A DNA stretch of 64,000 nt from the IMG/VR virus record IMGVR_UViG_3300037245_000888, positions 47,833 to 111,832 of that record, one strand, 5' to 3'. The stretch is from a virus. The position numbers were made by a program, and so were the translations under genes. Under the pieces are notes generated by a model. It was not told the origin of the DNA, made no database searches, and was given only the letters and a program-made list of their open reading frames with translations. Positions 1,911-27,146 of this stretch are shown here, piece by piece; the first letter of the stretch is position 1, and the number at the start of each line of letters is the position of its first letter.

Positions 1911-4364
1911 TTGAGTGAAGAAAAAAATATTGTTGAGTTCAAATGTGAGATTGAAAATTGTGTATTCCAGAGTGACAACTGGAGTATATATGCAGCAATA
2001 CCTAAATTTGATTCAGTAGATGTATCTGACAAGGATATATTCTCTGAGTCTGAAGTCAAGGATGATGGATTTAAATACAACAAATACAATAATATAACAC
2101 TAGTTGGTAATTTACCATCATTAGATTTATATCAAGAATATACGATTAAAGCAGATGTTACAAATGATCCTAATTATGGATGGCAATATAAAGTTATAAC
2201 ACTGCATAGAGATGTTCCAGCTAGTGATGCTGCGACTAGAGATTTCCTAGCGTCTATACTGACATACGATCAATGTAGTGTCGTATTAGAAGTTTATCCC
2301 GATGTTGTAAATATGGTAATAGATGGCAATGAAAAAGAAATAGATGTCACTAAACTTCATAATATAGGTGAATTCAGAAAAGGTAAGATGATAGACAAGA
2401 TACAGGAAAACTATGTTTATATGGATTTACTTTCAGAATTTAAGGACTTTGATTTATCTTTATCTACAGTGAAAGCATTATTTACGAAGCATGGGTCATC
2501 CGAAAAGGTTAAGCAAGTATTTTATAAAGATCCATACAAATTCTTAATGGACATGGATAGGATAGGATTCAAAAGAGCGGATGATAAAATATTGAGAAAG
2601 ATGCCTGAATTAAAGAGTAGCTATATAAGATGTAAAGCATATTTTGATAAATATATTATGGATATGGAGGGCAAAGGACATACAATTATATCACTTCCAA
2701 AGTTAGAAGAGTCTGTAAGAGAAAATATAATAGATAGCTATGAGTATTTTGATGAAGTTCAAAGCGATGAAAGATTCAAAAAGATAAAGAATTTTATCAT
2801 GAGAAAAGAAACATTTGATAAAGAATTGTATATAGCTCAGACTTTAATCGATATGCAATATGGTAATGAGCTAAGAGTATGGGATTATGATTTTGTAGAC
2901 ATTAATAAAGACAAAGAATTCCCTGCAACATTAGAACAGATAGCTGCAATGAATGACGCATTAATTAATAACGTGAGTATGTTATTTGCAATAGGTGGGT
3001 CTGGAAAGTCATTTGCTATGAAAACTCTACTAGATGTATTAGATGAATTAAATAAAACGTCTCTATGGTTGGCTCCAACAGGTAGGGCAAGCAAGGTTTT
3101 ATCTGATTATATTGGAAGAGGAGCAAGCACAATACACAGAGGTTTGGCATACAATCCTTCACAGTCTCCTAAATGGGGATACAATGAAAACAGTAAATTG
3201 AATTGTGATATTGTTATTATTGATGAGGGCTCAATGATCGATGTAGATTTAATGTATAGATTATGCTTAGCAATTGATCCAAGCGTAACTAAATTATTTA
3301 TAGTTGGAGACGATTATCAAATACCTTCAGTTGGAAAAGGTAATGTTGCATACGATATGCTCAGATCAACATTTATAAATGTATCTAGATTAACAAAAGT
3401 ATTCAGATACAAAGCTGGAGGCATGGCAAAAGTATTAGATGATATGAGACTTGGAAAAGTATTCTTTGATAGAAAAACATTGAAAGAAGGCGTAAATACA
3501 TTTGGAGAAGATAAAGATTATGTATTAATTAAGACTCCACAAGAGAAGTCAAGTGGGACAATATTATCTATATACAACAAAATGATATTGCAAGGAGTCC
3601 CACATACGGATATAATGATAACAATGACAATGAATGTTCATGAACACGGTGCAATAAAAATTAATAAAATGATACAAAAATATTTACTCGACAAAACTAA
3701 ATTGTTGGATAAAAATAGAAACATAAAGTCTAATGGAATGGATTGGTATGTTGGAGATATAGTAATGCAAACGTCAAACGATTATAAGGCTGAAATATCA
3801 GAAAGCTTATTTGAGAGCTCATCACCGTTTGTAGGTGAAGTATTTAATGGATCAGTAGGAAAGATTATAGATATTCAAAGAGATAAAGCATTGATAGAGT
3901 TTGATGGCGTTAAATTAGTCTACACAAAGAGTAAATTCTATAACCTGCTATTGGGTTATGCCGTCAATATATATAAACTACAGGGTGGTCAGGCTCCATA
4001 TATTATACTATCTACACCAAAAGCTCATACATTTAATATGAATAAAAATCTAATGTATACAGGTGGAAGTAGAGCAAAGAAAAGACTGTTCCATATTACT
4101 GATATAGATATTATATTATCAGCATTGTCTAAGTCTGCAACATTTGAAAGAGATACACTACTTGGACATTTACTAAAGAAAGTATATTTAGATTGGTCTA
4201 AAGAAAAAGTGGTTAAACCGTATGTTGAAAAAGAACACAATAATAGAAATCATCAATTTGGATTAGGCGATAGAAAACCACCAACTATAGGTAAAACATA
4301 TAAAGACTCAAATACGTTTAGAGGCTTCACAGCTATGGATGGAGACGATGACATACCTTTCTAA
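1911..4364 (+). CDS. recD2: RecD2-like SF1B helicase with SSB-like C-terminal tail
   Basis: Motifs GGSGKS, APTGRA, STIHR, DEGSM, GDDYQIPSVG, YAVNIYKLQG, NLMYTG-SRA, plus HhH IGFKRAD. TTG start at 1911 after GGAGGAG. Ends MDGDDDIPF. Confidence 0.9.
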   Translation: MSEEKNIVEFKCEIENCVFQSDNWSIYAAIPKFDSVDVSDKDIFSESEVKDDGFKYNKYNNITLVGNLPSLDLYQEYTIKADVTNDPNYGWQYKVITLHRDVPASDAATRDFLASILTYDQCSVVLEVYPDVVNMVIDGNEKEIDVTKLHNIGEFRKGKMIDKIQENYVYMDLLSEFKDFDLSLSTVKALFTKHGSSEKVKQVFYKDPYKFLMDMDRIGFKRADDKILRKMPELKSSYIRCKAYFDKYIMDMEGKGHTIISLPKLEESVRENIIDSYEYFDEVQSDERFKKIKNFIMRKETFDKELYIAQTLIDMQYGNELRVWDYDFVDINKDKEFPATLEQIAAMNDALINNVSMLFAIGGSGKSFAMKTLLDVLDELNKTSLWLAPTGRASKVLSDYIGRGASTIHRGLAYNPSQSPKWGYNENSKLNCDIVIIDEGSMIDVDLMYRLCLAIDPSVTKLFIVGDDYQIPSVGKGNVAYDMLRSTFINVSRLTKVFRYKAGGMAKVLDDMRLGKVFFDRKTLKEGVNTFGEDKDYVLIKTPQEKSSGTILSIYNKMILQGVPHTDIMITMTMNVHEHGAIKINKMIQKYLLDKTKLLDKNRNIKSNGMDWYVGDIVMQTSNDYKAEISESLFESSSPFVGEVFNGSVGKIIDIQRDKALIEFDGVKLVYTKSKFYNLLLGYAVNIYKLQGGQAPYIILSTPKAHTFNMNKNLMYTGGSRAKKRLFHITDIDIILSALSKSATFERDTLLGHLLKKVYLDWSKEKVVKPYVEKEHNNRNHQFGLGDRKPPTIGKTYKDSNTFRGFTAMDGDDDIPF

Positions 4365-4387: not shown

Positions 4388-7288
4388 ATGAACACGAAAA
4401 TCACAAATAACATTAAAATATCACAAATCAAAAATACAAAAGTATGTGCATTTAAAGGCTTCATGTCAACATTCAACGTGAGAGGTGGGTCTACCCCATT
4501 CCTCCACCTCTTATCTCTACATAAGAAATTTATAAGAGAACATGATAATATGACTGTTATAGAAGAATTCTTTGATGAAAATGTAGATGATTCGTACTTT
4601 CATTCTACTGTGGCCTTAGATATCGAGAAGAACTTATTCACTAAAAATTTAACTAGAATGTACGACTATTTCAAGTCTAATAACGCTACTATAATAGATT
4701 CTAAAGGTGGCTCATTCGATTACAATCACAATGGACAAACTATAGAAACTAAATATGATATGATTATTGAATATCCAGATAGAATTGAAGTTGTTAAAAT
4801 TGCTAACACTATTCCTAAGCTGTCATATAACGCTAAATCAGAGAAAAACTTACCAAGCAACAATCTAGAATTGTTCTTACTATCTGAGGGTGGTAAGAGT
4901 GCCTTTAACAGTGGTGGAACGTTGTTTGATAACATTAGTCTAGGGATTACAGATAAGCCTGTATATGGGTCTTTTTACCACCTACAGGGTAAGGCTGACA
5001 AGGATTCAGATAAGAAAAGTAAAATAGTTAAAAATTGTTATCAGATGTGGTTGAAAGGTGATTTCAAAGGTATTCAACATGAATTAAATGAGTTACAAGA
5101 ACTATATTATTATTATCATGAATTAGGTAAGAATGGAAAAGCAAAACCCTTTATGACTAAAATTAATAAAATTAACTCAATCCTAAAGTTTGATCACAAT
5201 CATGGTAATCACATTATCTCTGAAGTAAAGTTTGATAAATATAATATTCTATCTGAATTAGATGATATATTATCTGTTGAGTTAAATATGGATAGTGATA
5301 AATGTTCAGGAACCCATTGTACTATGTGTCCAAGTAAAGTATTATGTGACGCAAAGAAGTATACTCATATCGACTTAGAAGAGATAGTTGATGAAATTGA
5401 GGATGCTGATGATTGGACTAAGCTGCTTGATGATAATTATGAGTTAATAGAGAAGGTTGAGATTAAACCAACTAATCAGCAACAAGCAGTGATAGATACC
5501 AAAGAAGGATTTATTAGAGTTAACTCAGCATGTGGAACAGGTAAGTCTGAAACTACAGCTCAGAGATTTAAATCATTAATTCAAGATGGAGTTGAGTCAA
5601 ATAAAATACTTGGAATCACATTCACAAACAAAGGTGGACAGGAGTTAAGAGATAGAGTTTCAAAGAGAGCTAACGTTGATAAAAATGATCTTGAGATTTA
5701 TACATTTAACTCACTAGGCTCTCATATATTAAATAATGAGTTTGAATTATTAGGATTCACAAAAGAACCAACTATCGTAGATAATATCACGAAAGTAGAA
5801 ACTATGTTATCTATATTAAGAAATCCAAAGTACTATAGTATTGATTGGTTAAATATGAAATTACCATTACTATCTATGATCAATGCTAAAGGTGCAGTTT
5901 ATGAATTATTTGCTGCATTCAGCAAGAAGAAAACATTTGATACGTTTGGTGATTACGATAAAGAGCAACTGGAAATTATTCAAGAAATGTTCGATGAATA
6001 TAATAAAGCCGTTTGGAGTAAAGATAAAATTGACTATCAAGACCAAATATTATTAGTTAATGAATTATTCGAAAACCATCCACAGCTTATTGAGAAATAT
6101 GGATTTACACACATTATGACTGATGAGTTTCAAGATACTAATAAAATGCAAGTATACTTGCTTAATCAATTATCAACATACACAGAGTTTGTATCAATGA
6201 TGAATGTAGGTGACGCATCTCAAAGTATATACAGTTTTGCTGGATCCTCACAAGAATATATGTTAAACTTCGAAGCATATTTTGGAGAGTTCACAGATTT
6301 ATCAATGACAACTAATTTCAGATCAACAACGCAAATTTGCGATTTTGCCAATAAATTGGATAGATTAAATACTATCAGAATAGATAAAACAATGACATCA
6401 TTCAAAGGAAATGGAGAAGAAGTAGAATTACTCTCATACGATACCCTAGAAGACGAATATAGGGACGTAGCGAACCTTATTAAGTTTTCTGATACTAACT
6501 ATCAAGACACTGCTATACTGGCAAGAACGAAGGCTGAGCTGCTTAAAATGCAACGTGTGTTAAGTGATAATAATATACCTAGTATAATTGATGTCACTGA
6601 AAGAAATATAGACAATCATACTGTTAGGCTTGCTATTAATTTAGCTCAGTATTTAAACAACCCAAAAGAGAATCAATATTTGTTAGATCACATTTCATAT
6701 TTAAATCCAGAAGTGTCCAGTGATGATGAGTTAAATAATCTTATGGATAGTGTTGGTAAAACATTAACAGATGTAATTAACAATATTATCACTGAAGAAG
6801 AAAGACTAGAAGAAGGTTTGGATGCTAATGAGTCTATTGAATTAACTAGATTAGAATTATATTTAGATTTAGTTAGACCATTAAGAGACTCTGATGAAGT
6901 ATGTGACAAGTTTATTGAAGGTGTATTAAATAGTAGAACATTCATATCAATATCTGATTTATCTTCTTATTTAAAGAAACATGTAGATTATAATGATGCT
7001 GGACAAGTTGAGAAAGATGAAAGAAAATGGAAAGCTGTTAAACTTACAACTCTTCATTCTAGTAAGGGACAAGAATTTAATACTACTTTCGTTCTCCTTG
7101 ACAAAATGAAATATGATCACAAAATGTCACTAAAGGATTTGGAGGAAGAGAGGAGATTACTCTTTGTTGGCTGTACTAGGTCAAAGGATAAGTTGTACAT
7201 CATGTATAACAAGAATATGGATAAGAAACGTGGAGCTGGCAAGTATTGCTTGTTTGCTGATGAAGTTGCTATGATATTACAAGATTAA
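4388..7288 (+). CDS. UvrD/PcrA-family helicase with N-terminal PD-(D/E)XK-like, Cys-rich domain
   Basis: Motifs SACGTGKS, ITFTNKG, TDEFQDTN, VGDASQSIYSF, NFRS, TLHSSKGQEF, EERRLLFVGCTR. The N-terminal 330 aa has one early Cys and CSGTHCTMCPSKVLC. Confidence 0.88.
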   Translation: MNTKITNNIKISQIKNTKVCAFKGFMSTFNVRGGSTPFLHLLSLHKKFIREHDNMTVIEEFFDENVDDSYFHSTVALDIEKNLFTKNLTRMYDYFKSNNATIIDSKGGSFDYNHNGQTIETKYDMIIEYPDRIEVVKIANTIPKLSYNAKSEKNLPSNNLELFLLSEGGKSAFNSGGTLFDNISLGITDKPVYGSFYHLQGKADKDSDKKSKIVKNCYQMWLKGDFKGIQHELNELQELYYYYHELGKNGKAKPFMTKINKINSILKFDHNHGNHIISEVKFDKYNILSELDDILSVELNMDSDKCSGTHCTMCPSKVLCDAKKYTHIDLEEIVDEIEDADDWTKLLDDNYELIEKVEIKPTNQQQAVIDTKEGFIRVNSACGTGKSETTAQRFKSLIQDGVESNKILGITFTNKGGQELRDRVSKRANVDKNDLEIYTFNSLGSHILNNEFELLGFTKEPTIVDNITKVETMLSILRNPKYYSIDWLNMKLPLLSMINAKGAVYELFAAFSKKKTFDTFGDYDKEQLEIIQEMFDEYNKAVWSKDKIDYQDQILLVNELFENHPQLIEKYGFTHIMTDEFQDTNKMQVYLLNQLSTYTEFVSMMNVGDASQSIYSFAGSSQEYMLNFEAYFGEFTDLSMTTNFRSTTQICDFANKLDRLNTIRIDKTMTSFKGNGEEVELLSYDTLEDEYRDVANLIKFSDTNYQDTAILARTKAELLKMQRVLSDNNIPSIIDVTERNIDNHTVRLAINLAQYLNNPKENQYLLDHISYLNPEVSSDDELNNLMDSVGKTLTDVINNIITEEERLEEGLDANESIELTRLELYLDLVRPLRDSDEVCDKFIEGVLNSRTFISISDLSSYLKKHVDYNDAGQVEKDERKWKAVKLTTLHSSKGQEFNTTFVLLDKMKYDHKMSLKDLEEERRLLFVGCTRSKDKLYIMYNKNMDKKRGAGKYCLFADEVAMILQD

Positions 7289-23614: not shown

Positions 23615-25549
23615 TTAAAACTTAACCAATTGATAAAGTCTTCTCGTTGTTGTATAATACCAAACACCATCAACCTTCAATAATGTTGAATTTCCTGCAT
23701 CCCAGCTATTAATAAACCCGAGAACCATAGCCTTACCCATTCTGGTAGCTGTTTTATTACTCATATATGGGTGTACAGCAAAATACAATTCACCGTTAAG
23801 TTTAAAGTTATAAGGTCTTTTAGTTGCTCTAATTACATCTGCATATTTACCAGTGAATCCTGATGTAGCATATGCACTTGTTGATGGATATAATTCAAGT
23901 CCAGCATCAGCGAAAACTACACCATTGCCTAATTCCTTTGCGTTTAATACAGTTTTAACATCAAAGTGTTTACCACCTTTTGAAAATAGCGTAAAAGTAG
24001 GTTTATAATGCACCTGTCCGTCAAGTAATAATTTACCTTTTGTCATTGTAATTCCATACTTATACATTTTTCTTGCTGTAGGAGAATACCATTGATAACT
24101 TGAAGTAATTAAATTTGATTCAATATACCTATTACCAGCCTTATCTCCAATTGTAATATCTAATCTACTTGGATTAACCTTAACAACTATTGATGTATAT
24201 TTACTATTTTTAGGAATCTTCCAAGACTCTGTTCCATATTTACCATTGTGATATTTATGAAAATCTAATATAAGCTTTTTATTAATTTTAAATATATCAT
24301 CTTCATTTAGAGTATTTCCATGTGAAGATAGTCCAATTTCAGCTTTCAAATCTTTAATTCCTAATATAGTACCATTGCCTTTTTTCTTATCACATGAGAA
24401 TGCTCTATAATATCCAAGTGATTGTAATGCTCTCTGTAAGTATAATATTTGACTAGATTTGAATGAACTGGTTTTATTATAGTTGATTACACCCTTATAA
24501 ACTAATTGTGGAATAGCTTTGTTATATAGTAGTACCTCAGACTTCACCACAGCCTCACCACTGTCATCAAATGGTTCACTGGTAATAACTGTTGGCTCAT
24601 CAATAACTACTGTCTGAGAGGCTATTAGAGCTGTATTAATAGCTGTAGCAATATTCTCTGTAATTTTATTATTATACCAAATATTTAATGGTTTACAGAA
24701 ATTATATAATGCTGTTGAAAGACCATTACCATAAGATTTATCTAATCCATTTACATCAAATCCTAATTGAGTTAATGCTTTCTGAACTTCTAATACATCA
24801 TCAGAAACTTCACCTTTTAATATATCTCTTCCAACATACATATATAAAACTTTAATAGTATAAGGCTCATATGGGTCAATAAAATCTTTAATATCATCAA
24901 TTGTTTTCTTTTCTAAGTCAGTAAATTTCTCACCTGACATTTTAATTTTAATGTTGATTCTTTCTCCTGTCATATTTTCTCCTTTTTTAGATCCTTTTTT
25001 AATCTCATATAAACTTTTAACATCTTGTAAAAATACATTCCACCTACTATAATCCACTTTATTATATTCTGGACAATAATATTTAGGACAATCTTTACCT
25101 GATATAATCCCATGATTTGTTACTTTATCTAATCCTAAATTATATTCAATTAATAAGTCAACTGTTCTTTCTACCATTATAAAATACACGATATCAGAAT
25201 AGTTTCCTTTCATGTTTATTGTTGGAACTTCAATTGAATATACAACAGAATTAGGGTAAGTGTCACCCATCATATTATATTTTTCTTTTGTGTATGTTTT
25301 GGAGCCTACACTATATGCCATTTCATTGTCTGGTATAACTTTCCAAACATCACCATTAGTATCAATTATTTCATGAGCTGATCCATAGCTTTTCTTACCA
25401 TATTTTCTTGATTCAAAGAAGTCTCTTACAGCGGATGCTCTTGCATTAATAACAGCCTCCCAATGAACACATATAAATTTAACCTCAGCTTTCTTCTGTG
25501 GCCTACTCCATTTATTAGGAGTTAAATATTTTTCTATTACTTTGTACAT
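23615..25549 (-). CDS. endolysin: Amidase_2 + peptidoglycan-binding repeats + NAGPA-like C-terminal domain
   Basis: Amidase motifs ICVHW, SAHEIID, SIE, NHG...KDCP. Two PG_binding_1-like segments (VQKALTQLGF, LQRALQSLGY). C-terminal INSWDAGNST. Confidence 0.82.
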   Translation of the reverse strand: MYKVIEKYLTPNKWSRPQKKAEVKFICVHWEAVINARASAVRDFFESRKYGKKSYGSAHEIIDTNGDVWKVIPDNEMAYSVGSKTYTKEKYNMMGDTYPNSVVYSIEVPTINMKGNYSDIVYFIMVERTVDLLIEYNLGLDKVTNHGIISGKDCPKYYCPEYNKVDYSRWNVFLQDVKSLYEIKKGSKKGENMTGERINIKIKMSGEKFTDLEKKTIDDIKDFIDPYEPYTIKVLYMYVGRDILKGEVSDDVLEVQKALTQLGFDVNGLDKSYGNGLSTALYNFCKPLNIWYNNKITENIATAINTALIASQTVVIDEPTVITSEPFDDSGEAVVKSEVLLYNKAIPQLVYKGVINYNKTSSFKSSQILYLQRALQSLGYYRAFSCDKKKGNGTILGIKDLKAEIGLSSHGNTLNEDDIFKINKKLILDFHKYHNGKYGTESWKIPKNSKYTSIVVKVNPSRLDITIGDKAGNRYIESNLITSSYQWYSPTARKMYKYGITMTKGKLLLDGQVHYKPTFTLFSKGGKHFDVKTVLNAKELGNGVVFADAGLELYPSTSAYATSGFTGKYADVIRATKRPYNFKLNGELYFAVHPYMSNKTATRMGKAMVLGFINSWDAGNSTLLKVDGVWYYTTTRRLYQLVKF

Positions 25550-25657
25550 ATTACCTCCTTTTACAATCCAATCTATTCAAAGCCATTGTAACATATTCAA
25601 TTAACAATGTAAAGAACATGTTGGCTATATTTTTCAATTTAATAAGAAAAGGGAATT

Positions 25658-26041
25658 TCACCCTAATCTATTTTTCTTTTTTCTTAATACTACTCCAGCA
25701 ATATATCCTAATGGAATAGCTAACCACCATATAATGAATGAGCTTATTAAGGCTAATCCGATTATTAGGATTGTTGATACAATAAAACATTGCCACATTT
25801 CTGGCATGTGTACACCCTTTCTACCTACTCTGGCCAATATAAAAAATAACATTGCTAAAATAGATTCAGGGACTACACCGAGCATAAATGCTATACTCAT
25901 AATGAATGTTGTCTCGTAAACTTGGAACATTGACATATCAATAAACATTGCCAGATATTTAGTATCCTCTGGCATATTATGTTTATCACATATTTTCTTT
26001 GCTAATTTGTAGTAAATTGTGTTCTTTCTGCTTTTACTCAT
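25658..26041 (-). CDS. agrB: AgrB-like peptide-cyclising membrane protease (short, 127 aa)
   Basis: R-x4-G-x-H-x6-C (ARVGRKGVHMPEMWQC) with the AgrB His/Cys spacing, in a 4-TM protein. Confidence 0.8.
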   Translation of the reverse strand: MSKSRKNTIYYKLAKKICDKHNMPEDTKYLAMFIDMSMFQVYETTFIMSIAFMLGVVPESILAMLFFILARVGRKGVHMPEMWQCFIVSTILIIGLALISSFIIWWLAIPLGYIAGVVLRKKKNRLG

Positions 26042-26135
26042 AATCTGATAAATCTGTTTCTCCGACTATCCAAAAACATCCAGTTTTACTTGTTAGTCCT
26101 AATAGTCTCTTAATAAGTTCCATTAATTTTTTCAT
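26034..26135 (-). CDS. agrD: AgrD-like autoinducing-peptide precursor, 33 aa (not in ORF track)
   Basis: GGAGG RBS. Sequence MKKLMELIKRLLGLTSKTG-CFWIV-GETDLSDYE shows an amphipathic leader, a Cys-x4 ring and an acidic tail. Stop overlaps the agrB start. Confidence 0.8.
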   Translation of the reverse strand: MKKLMELIKRLLGLTSKTGCFWIVGETDLSDYE

Positions 26136-26592
26136 ACTTTCCTCCAAGTCTCATATAGGTTATATAACAAATCATATATTGAAATAGTCTAACAGGAGTA
26201 TAAAATATTATAGTGGAATATATACTTTCTTTTACTGGCGATATATCACTGCCAAGAATATATAGAATCGGCACATATATTATAAACTCCATGACTCCAA
26301 CAATCACTATGGCTATAGCTGTATTTAAAAATACTTTTAGTGCTTTTTCTTTGTTTACTTTGCTTAGGAAAGATATTGTTAATCCGGCCAATGCTAGATA
26401 GACTAATCTATTTAATATGCTATCACTACCAAATGGTAATAATATTAGCCCTAACACAGAACATATTAATATTGATATGATTGTGTATTTAGTCTTAATA
26501 TTTATCTTTGAAAACATTAATGTCATCAATACTACAAATGTTGCTTCAAAGATTTGTATACCGATAAAGTCTGTTAACCAGATGTAATTCAT
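26110..26592 (-). CDS. AgrC/VirS-like membrane sensor domain lacking kinase domain
   Basis: About 5 TM helices with intramembrane Glu (IFEA, VMEF). Overlaps agrD. No H-box or HATPase domain. Confidence 0.55.
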   Translation of the reverse strand: MNYIWLTDFIGIQIFEATFVVLMTLMFSKINIKTKYTIISILICSVLGLILLPFGSDSILNRLVYLALAGLTISFLSKVNKEKALKVFLNTAIAIVIVGVMEFIIYVPILYILGSDISPVKESIYSTIIFYTPVRLFQYMICYITYMRLGGKYEKINGTY

Positions 26593-27146
26593 AAAATCAG
26601 CTCCTTTAACATAATTAATATATCAAAGAAAGTTTTGCCACCTGATGTAAAAAACGAGAATATACTAACCAACAGTATAATTGACATTGTTACTATAAAT
26701 CTACTTATCCATTTGTTTAATTTACTTTTGTTGTAGAACAACCTAAATTGATCTCTCAGGTTATTATTCTTAATCTCAGCTTTCATACCTTGTATTTCAT
26801 TTAATATCAAACCTACTGATCTTTTCAAATCATCTTGTTCTCTACTTGATATAAATTGATTAGCTAAGACTTGAGCATTGTTTTCTAAATATTCTTCTAG
26901 CTTACTACTTATTTCATCGATAGAATTTGAAAGCTTACCAATAACATCTCTATCTTCTTGACGATTATTTTTCATCTCTTTGAGTTCAAATCGAATTTCA
27001 GTTATTTCAAGTTGCATTTTATGAAAAGTATCAACAGTTATCATACTTCCTTTTACATGGTCTACTTCCTGTCTTAATAATTTTATTTCATTTTCAAGAT
27101 TATTGATTTTGCTCTTGTTAGCCTCACCAATACATTTTTCAGTCAT
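26589..27146 (-). CDS. coiled-coil protein with C-terminal TM helix (holin-like or accessory)
   Basis: Long heptad region then a TM helix; ATGA overlap with the next gene. Confidence 0.5.
   Translation of the reverse strand: MTEKCIGEANKSKINNLENEIKLLRQEVDHVKGSMITVDTFHKMQLEITEIRFELKEMKNNRQEDRDVIGKLSNSIDEISSKLEEYLENNAQVLANQFISSREQDDLKRSVGLILNEIQGMKAEIKNNNLRDQFRLFYNKSKLNKWISRFIVTMSIILLVSIFSFFTSGGKTFFDILIMLKELIL

Follow-up and report, generated by a model that had tools for sequence, protein, structure and literature searches.

Gene order at the locus

The window analysed here, a 64,000-nucleotide stretch of DNA, corresponds to bases 47833-111832 of a 111,832-bp IMG/VR virus record. The record has direct terminal repeats and represents the ~112-kb genome of an uncultivated phage of marine-sediment origin. 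A single sequencing run, a marine sediment metagenome, contains the stretch and is probably its source. The G+C content of the window is 31%. A minus-strand late operon runs from tail-fibre-like genes through a cassette of four overlapping genes to an endolysin gene. The cassette encodes, in order, a 185-aa coiled-coil/TM protein, a 160-aa membrane protein, a 33-aa peptide and a 127-aa AgrB relative (mini-AgrB). The features are as follows.

27146..26589, minus strand: 185-aa protein, coiled coil at the N-terminus and TM helix at the C-terminus, first of the four overlapping genes
26592..26110, minus strand: 160-aa five-helix membrane protein, no family matched
26145..26141, minus strand: Shine-Dalgarno (SD) motif GGAGG, within the 3' end of the 160-aa gene
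26135..26034, minus strand: candidate gene for a 33-aa AgrD-like propeptide (leader, residues 1-19; predicted ring, C20-V24; tail, G25-E33)
26078..26064, minus strand: codons of the predicted ring CFWIV, within the 33-aa peptide gene
26063..26037, minus strand: codons of the tail G25-E33, followed by the stop TAA at 26036..26034
26041..25658, minus strand: mini-AgrB, 127 aa (Pfam PF04647; R71, G76, H78, C85, S89)
25549..23615, minus strand: endolysin (Amidase_2 and PG_binding_1), directly downstream of the cassette

The peptide ORF shares 26 nt with the end of the 160-aa gene before it, and its stop overlaps the start of mini-AgrB by 8 nt (ATGAGTAA). The peptide gene lies upstream of agrB, in reverse of the usual B-D order, a point on which the note quoted below had placed no emphasis. 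Mini-AgrB and the endolysin gene are separated by 108 nt, and two small membrane proteins follow the endolysin. The gap is occupied by a 36-aa GTG-started ORF (25551-25661, minus strand) and contains a promoter-like TTTACA-17-TACAAT with a TG (25613..25585); a promoter and terminator scan of the region gave a result at chance level. The same gap in the related locus described below holds an unrelated 33-aa ORF, and on comparison of the two sequences the 36-aa ORF is probably not conserved.

The 33-aa ORF

An earlier note on this DNA, made from the sequence alone, had described the 33-aa ORF as an unannotated AgrD-like propeptide, and the sequence features that it listed are all present. The GGAGG motif named as the ribosome-binding site (RBS) lies 5 nt before the ATG. 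The proposed amphipathic leader is borne out by residues 1-13, which make a strongly amphipathic helix with a hydrophobic moment of 0.72, matched by 0.8% of shuffles. The Cys-x4 layout is present in the sequence as described: the sole Cys of the peptide is residue 20, followed by FWIV and a 9-residue tail, GETDLSDYE. This tail is Pro-free, as the note had pointed out, and so is that of the related peptide. The word unannotated held in part, as automatic gene callers had predicted both peptides without naming either.

A degenerate DNA pattern for the peptide matched once in the window and in none of 100 shuffles; viral and metagenome contigs gave no match to it. Searching GenBank phages with the peptide by tblastn returned a single chance-level match (E 5), and blastn of the region against the same phages returned none. 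An ESM Atlas search with the peptide gave no usable match.

Conservation of the cassette in a related locus

A genome contig scan identified one related locus, here called L002, which lies on a 25-kb MAG contig from sediment (CALNXW010000024.1) and is the sole comparison locus. Scans of viral and metagenome contigs with mini-AgrB, its alignment, single relatives and the tail-fibre neighbour gave no match. The cassette of L002 is syntenic with that of the window, with a coiled-coil/TM protein, a five-helix membrane protein, a 34-aa ORF, a 121-aa mini-AgrB and an endolysin. Identities to the window counterparts are as follows.

Tail-fibre-like protein: 74% identical
Coiled-coil/TM protein, 186 aa: 35% identical
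Membrane protein, 161 aa: 22% identical
Peptide ORF, 3901-4005, 34 aa: 52% identical (17/33)
Mini-AgrB, 121 aa: 43% identical
Endolysin, 4481-6031: C-terminal ~330 aa 38% identical, N-terminal catalytic domain different

The 34-aa ORF begins within the end of the membrane-protein gene, is preceded by AAGGGG ~8 nt before its ATG, and retains the 8-nt overlap with agrB (ATGAATAG). The 185-aa and 160-aa genes are likewise joined by a 4-nt overlap (ATGA at 26592-26589; GTGA at 3432-3435 in L002), so that the four cassette genes are chained by overlaps in both phages. The Amidase_2 endolysin of the window is matched in L002 by an enzyme that, judging by its motifs, resembles an M23-type peptidase, a domain swap within one lysis module.

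The identity between the two peptides (52%) exceeds that of three other cassette genes (22%, 35% and 43%). Eight conserved codons carry synonymous differences, and pN is 0.32 compared with a pS of 0.61; the pN is the same as that of mini-AgrB. The C-termini of the membrane proteins overlapped by the peptide ORF are not conserved between the window and L002, and the membrane-protein frame therefore does not explain the conservation of the peptide. The earlier note had named a lack of conservation beside agrB homologues among the findings that would refute it; this was not the outcome, as the homologous ORF in L002 overlaps the mini-AgrB gene there.

Mini-AgrB as the putative partner enzyme

Mini-AgrB matched the Pfam AgrB profile with 52.6 bits (cut-off 23; E 4.6e-14) over profile positions 3-101 of 185. 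Analysis by hhalign placed it with 99.5% probability on the N-terminal ~130 residues of full-length AgrBs. The match stops just before the YAPADT/Pro motif, and the last third of AgrB is absent from mini-AgrB. At 127 aa, it does not have the full-length AgrB architecture of ~190 aa with C-terminal helices and a conserved Pro region.

A phmmer search of 1.84 billion representatives revealed that the nearest relatives are all 121-148 aa long, with 30-51% identity, while ordinary ~200-aa AgrBs appeared at E 1e-7 or worse only. Since the nearest relatives are all short, mini-AgrB is, on sequence grounds, a conserved minimal form and not a broken gene. Residues R71, G76, H78, C85 and S89 are invariant across this family. 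The first four align with residues of the AgrBs of S. aureus, phiCDHM1 and the Brevibacillus phages, and correspond to S. aureus R70, G75, H77 and C84, which are required for the peptidase activity of S. aureus AgrB (PMC10196373). What the earlier note had called an unusually short AgrB thus belongs to a real conserved family with invariant R71, G76, H78 and C85. Cyclisation by mini-AgrB is putative, as the absent last third of AgrB includes the invariant Pro region.

Length alone does not define a mini-AgrB, because several short AgrB entries are fragments. Among entries of 117-133 aa (P0013, P0027-P0032), several are full-length genes cut at contig ends or by frameshifts. P0013 and its cluster look like cut full-length genes, several of which break at or before YAPADT, and P0012, 40% identical to P0013, groups there; both were left out of the family.

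Searching GenBank phages with mini-AgrB by tblastn gave no match. In a homologous-protein search, mini-AgrB and the 160-aa protein each matched only themselves. Prediction of a complex between mini-AgrB and the peptide gave a score of 0.02, which is evidence neither way.

The start of mini-AgrB has no SD within 5-10 nt, and the same is true of mini-AgrB in L002. The lack of an SD of its own in either phage suggests that translation of mini-AgrB is coupled to the small ORF, and probably depends on ribosomes that finish it.

The 160-aa membrane protein

Family searches with the 160-aa protein gave no match. Its AF2 model is a five-helix bundle (pLDDT 75), for which Foldseek found no match in the PDB. 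In an ESM Atlas structure search, the Atlas's own model of the protein came closest (TM score 0.75 over residues 1-151) to HATPase_c_5 kinases of the AgrC type from Bacillota, which are 450 aa long and matched in their N-terminal part. The modelled resemblance to an AgrC sensor domain is a lead only. Sequence kinship with the sensor domains of AgrC or the membrane proteins of phage Davies was not supported (hhalign probability 0.1%), and the possibility that the protein is the missing C-terminal half of AgrB was rejected (3.7%). No HATPase_c_5 kinase or LytTR domain was found in the phage genome.

Comparison of the peptide with AgrD

In both the window and L002, a small ORF adjoins agrB in the same orientation; the peptide of the window has an N-terminal amphipathic leader. 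Of the AgrD tail, a charged stretch of about 14-15 residues with acidic positions at +1 and +2 after the ring and a conserved Pro, only the Glu at +2 is kept. Neither Pfam AgrD (PF05931) nor NCBIfam TIGR04223 matched the 33-aa or 37-aa forms of the peptide at E <= 10. The lack of a profile match, the 9-residue tail without Pro, the D-B gene order and the unconserved acidity disfavour strict AgrD membership. From its sequence, the peptide is best called AgrD-like, outside the curated AgrD family.

The aligned ends of the two peptides are KTG-CFWIV-GETDLSDYE in the window and KSA-SFLWL-NEFKLKNYE in L002. Shared by both are the Phe that follows the nucleophile, a Glu at ring+2 and a Leu at ring+5, and Tyr-Glu at the C-terminus. 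The column of Cys20, the most informative of the alignment, is Ser in L002, by a single TGT to TCT change. An AgrD-type ring can be closed by either of these two residues. Such a swap is as expected for a ring nucleophile, which would form a thiolactone in one peptide and a lactone in the other.

The Cys or Ser (Cys20 and its counterpart in L002) stands five residues before the putative cleavage site, followed by Gly or Asn and then Glu. The corresponding sequences are NA-CSSLF-DEP in S. aureus AgrD (public record) and TT-SVWYI-NQP in phiCDHM1 AgrD (GenBank record). All four peptides have the nucleophile, four mostly hydrophobic residues, a small or polar residue and then Glu or Gln. In S. aureus AgrD, D33 and E34 (ring+1 and +2) are essential for cleavage by AgrB, and a contact between E34 and R70 has been modelled (PMC10196373). 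Both partners of this contact are kept here, as Glu at ring+2 and R71. The phiCDHM1 AgrD (gp35, L023 6177-6290) contains no Cys, and the Ser at its nucleophile position implies a lactone rather than a thiolactone.

The AgrD-like interpretation of the earlier note is supported by the conserved ORF beside mini-AgrB and by the Cys/Ser variation at the nucleophile. Its description of the tail as acidic holds for GETDLSDYE, but acidity is not a kept feature, as the net charge is -4 in the window and 0 in L002. The note had also suggested that the Pro-less tail may be matched to the short AgrB. In line with this, a short tail without Pro occurs together with a mini-AgrB at L002 too, giving two loci only (n=2).

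Proposed mechanism

The observed ORF with its RBS, the conservation with coding-type substitutions, the AgrB homology with its catalytic residues and the operon layout are consistent with a translated 33-codon gene whose product is an AgrD-type propeptide and serves as substrate of the downstream mini-AgrB, and we give this reading a probability of about 0.68. By analogy with Agr systems, the product is most likely a precursor that the overlapping mini-AgrB converts into a small ring-shaped signalling peptide. The scheme that follows takes its translation, cleavage site, ring closure, export, signalling role and receptor from the Agr paradigm.

In this scheme, the amphipathic helix (residues 1-13) would carry the propeptide to the cytoplasmic face of the membrane. 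Mini-AgrB would recognise the tail, in particular the Glu at ring+2 (Glu26), probably via the invariant R71. Cleavage after V24, using C85 and H78, would release the 9-residue tail, and the C20 side chain would resolve the acyl-enzyme to give the 5-residue thiolactone c(CFWIV). In L002, the Ser would give the lactone c(SFLWL). The leader would be removed by some protease, and the peptide would leave the cell either through export or upon lysis.

Ribosomes ending the peptide ORF would re-initiate at the overlapping agrB start, so that substrate and enzyme would be made together, late in infection and alongside the tail-fibre and lysis genes. Candidate receivers are an AgrC-type receptor of the host, on which the peptide could act as agonist or antagonist, and, in other infected cells, the membrane protein that lacks a kinase domain; there may also be no receiver beyond the producer.

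An extension of this scheme, which we consider rather unlikely, is that the four genes form a phage-autonomous circuit. A cyclic peptide released from infected cells late in infection or at lysis would be read directly by the five-helix protein of other infected cells, without a kinase, and would shift lysis timing or, in view of the tyrosine recombinase of the phage, the lysis-lysogeny choice. Such a circuit, if real, would do with a cyclic peptide what lysis inhibition or arbitrium does by other means.

Alternative explanations

It is highly improbable that the small ORF is a chance, untranslated frame in an AT-rich spacer. The frame has only 33 codons, ORFs of 25-40 aa are many in a window of such low G+C, and no RNA dataset is listed among the runs containing the stretch. 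Against this, L002 retains the frame along with its length, its start, an SD and the overlap of stop and start although pS is near saturation, and it keeps more than half of the amino acids, with the eight synonymous differences noted above. The chance of an open 33-codon frame with an ATG at the same place, estimated from base composition, is ~0.001, and the C-terminus of the 160-aa protein that the ORF overlaps is itself unconserved. The small ORF is thus almost certainly a real gene. Such a gene might instead encode a membrane-active amphipathic peptide of the lysis machinery that works within the infected cell and yields no cyclic signal, for example by tuning the holin or the coiled-coil/TM protein, with mini-AgrB trimming it or being unrelated. 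Four points would fit a lysis peptide: the position of the cassette just ahead of the endolysin gene in both phages, the strong amphipathicity of the leader, the lack of a match to any AgrD profile, and the absence of a receptor kinase or regulator gene from the phage genome. We nevertheless regard this explanation as unlikely, since it accounts neither for the Cys/Ser column, the four hydrophobic residues and the Glu at +2, nor for the tight coupling to a protease-cyclase with all its catalytic residues.

The peptide could also be an AgrB substrate with a non-canonical product, either linear and trimmed of its tail, or with a ring of another size closed through another Ser or Thr. Several conserved Ser/Thr residues are available just upstream (LTSK), and mini-AgrB has no C-terminal third. 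Mutants of S. aureus AgrB at K129-131 retain peptidase activity and do not make AIP (PMC10196373). However, the C-terminus of the mini-AgrBs is a conserved basic stretch (R120; LRKKK in the window) that aligns with about the start of the K129-131 loop, and the Cys or Ser lies exactly five residues before the conserved pair of a small residue and Glu, like those of the S. aureus and phiCDHM1 AgrDs. A product of this kind is similarly unlikely, and an AgrD-type propeptide giving a five-residue ring is the reading that we prefer.

Comparison with known systems

With the agrBDCA system of S. aureus, the cassette shares a leader of amphipathic character, a Cys-x4 unit, Glu at +2, and an adjoining membrane Cys-protease with R-x4-G-x-H-x6-C. 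It differs in the length of the precursor, which is 46-47 aa with a Pro-containing tail of 14-15 aa in S. aureus and 33 aa with a 9-residue Pro-less tail here. AgrB is ~190 aa in S. aureus and 127 aa here, where the order is D-B, stop and start overlap, and the AgrC kinase and AgrA are absent.

Members of the Staphylococcus intermedius group produce serine-lactone autoinducing peptides, in which Ser replaces Cys; these are cellular systems with full agrBDCA loci. The Ser nucleophile is shared by the L002 peptide. In arbitrium, the signal AimP is a hexapeptide of linear form that host proteases process and the cytoplasmic receptor AimR senses, with no AgrB-type cyclase. It is a small secreted phage peptide that could inform between infections, as the present peptide may be, but its gene lies outside any late or lysis operon. 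Carriage of agr genes by phages has been known since 2014, and we know of no case with a demonstrated function.

The C. difficile phage phiCDHM1 carries agrC, agrB and agrD beside its endolysin (PMC3901668; HG531805). As in the window, agrD and agrB are phage-borne and near the endolysin, and the phiCDHM1 ring SVWYI is aromatic and followed by Asn, with a Ser like that of L002. In contrast, phiCDHM1 encodes a 197-aa AgrB and a complete AgrC kinase, with B-D order and a P-x-x-P tail. Its agr genes are oriented opposite to the lysis genes and are clearly host-acquired.

The Brevibacillus phages Davies, Emery and Abouo encode an AgrB together with a putative AgrD and membrane proteins that lack a kinase domain (PMC3901668). 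We confirmed the layout in Davies, with AgrB, a small ORF and membrane proteins without a HATPase domain. The Brevibacillus-phage cassettes thus share with the present one an AgrB, a small ORF and HATPase-less membrane proteins. Davies differs in its 172-aa AgrB, B-D order, 39-aa peptide with a PKEL tail, two ~220-aa membrane proteins and location in the lysogeny region.

The new element is the combination of a minimal AgrB family, a D-B order in which stop and start are coupled, a precursor of 33-34 aa whose 9-residue tail lacks Pro, Cys/Ser alternation, and a late-operon site just before the endolysin. Among those found in this analysis, its AgrD-like precursor and its AgrB-like enzyme are the shortest, and the cassette may define a minimal (thio)lactone-peptide machinery. 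Since a sequence search found no AgrB relative among solved structures, such a machinery would be of use to enzymology. The arrangement would place signal production in a late, lysis-linked, kinase-less phage operon, and raises the question of whether the listener is the host, its neighbours or other phages.

Host and lifestyle

The terminase is nearest to those of Bacillus siphophages (24-28% identity), and the endolysin amidase to gut phage fragments and a Terrisporobacter phage. These matches point to a host among the Bacillota. The MAG that contains L002 is 4.4 Mb in size and encodes LpxC (G001:C16:724411-725298) on a contig of >3 Mb; Spo0A is absent, and the MAG is thus that of a diderm. 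Its G+C content is similar to that of the phage contig (33-35%), and its only AgrB is the phage-type one. Among 401 genomes of the class of this MAG, TIGR04223 gave spurious sub-threshold matches only. The binning of L002 may be compositional, or the host may be an unexpected one. The phage proteins argue for another host than the MAG bin does, and of the two we favour Bacillota.

A 308-aa tyrosine recombinase (PF00589, E 4.7e-24; G000:C1:35594-36049) is encoded ~12 kb before the start of the window. The phage may be temperate, or the recombinase may serve in resolving dimers, a point of relevance to any role of a peptide signal in the choice between lysis and lysogeny.
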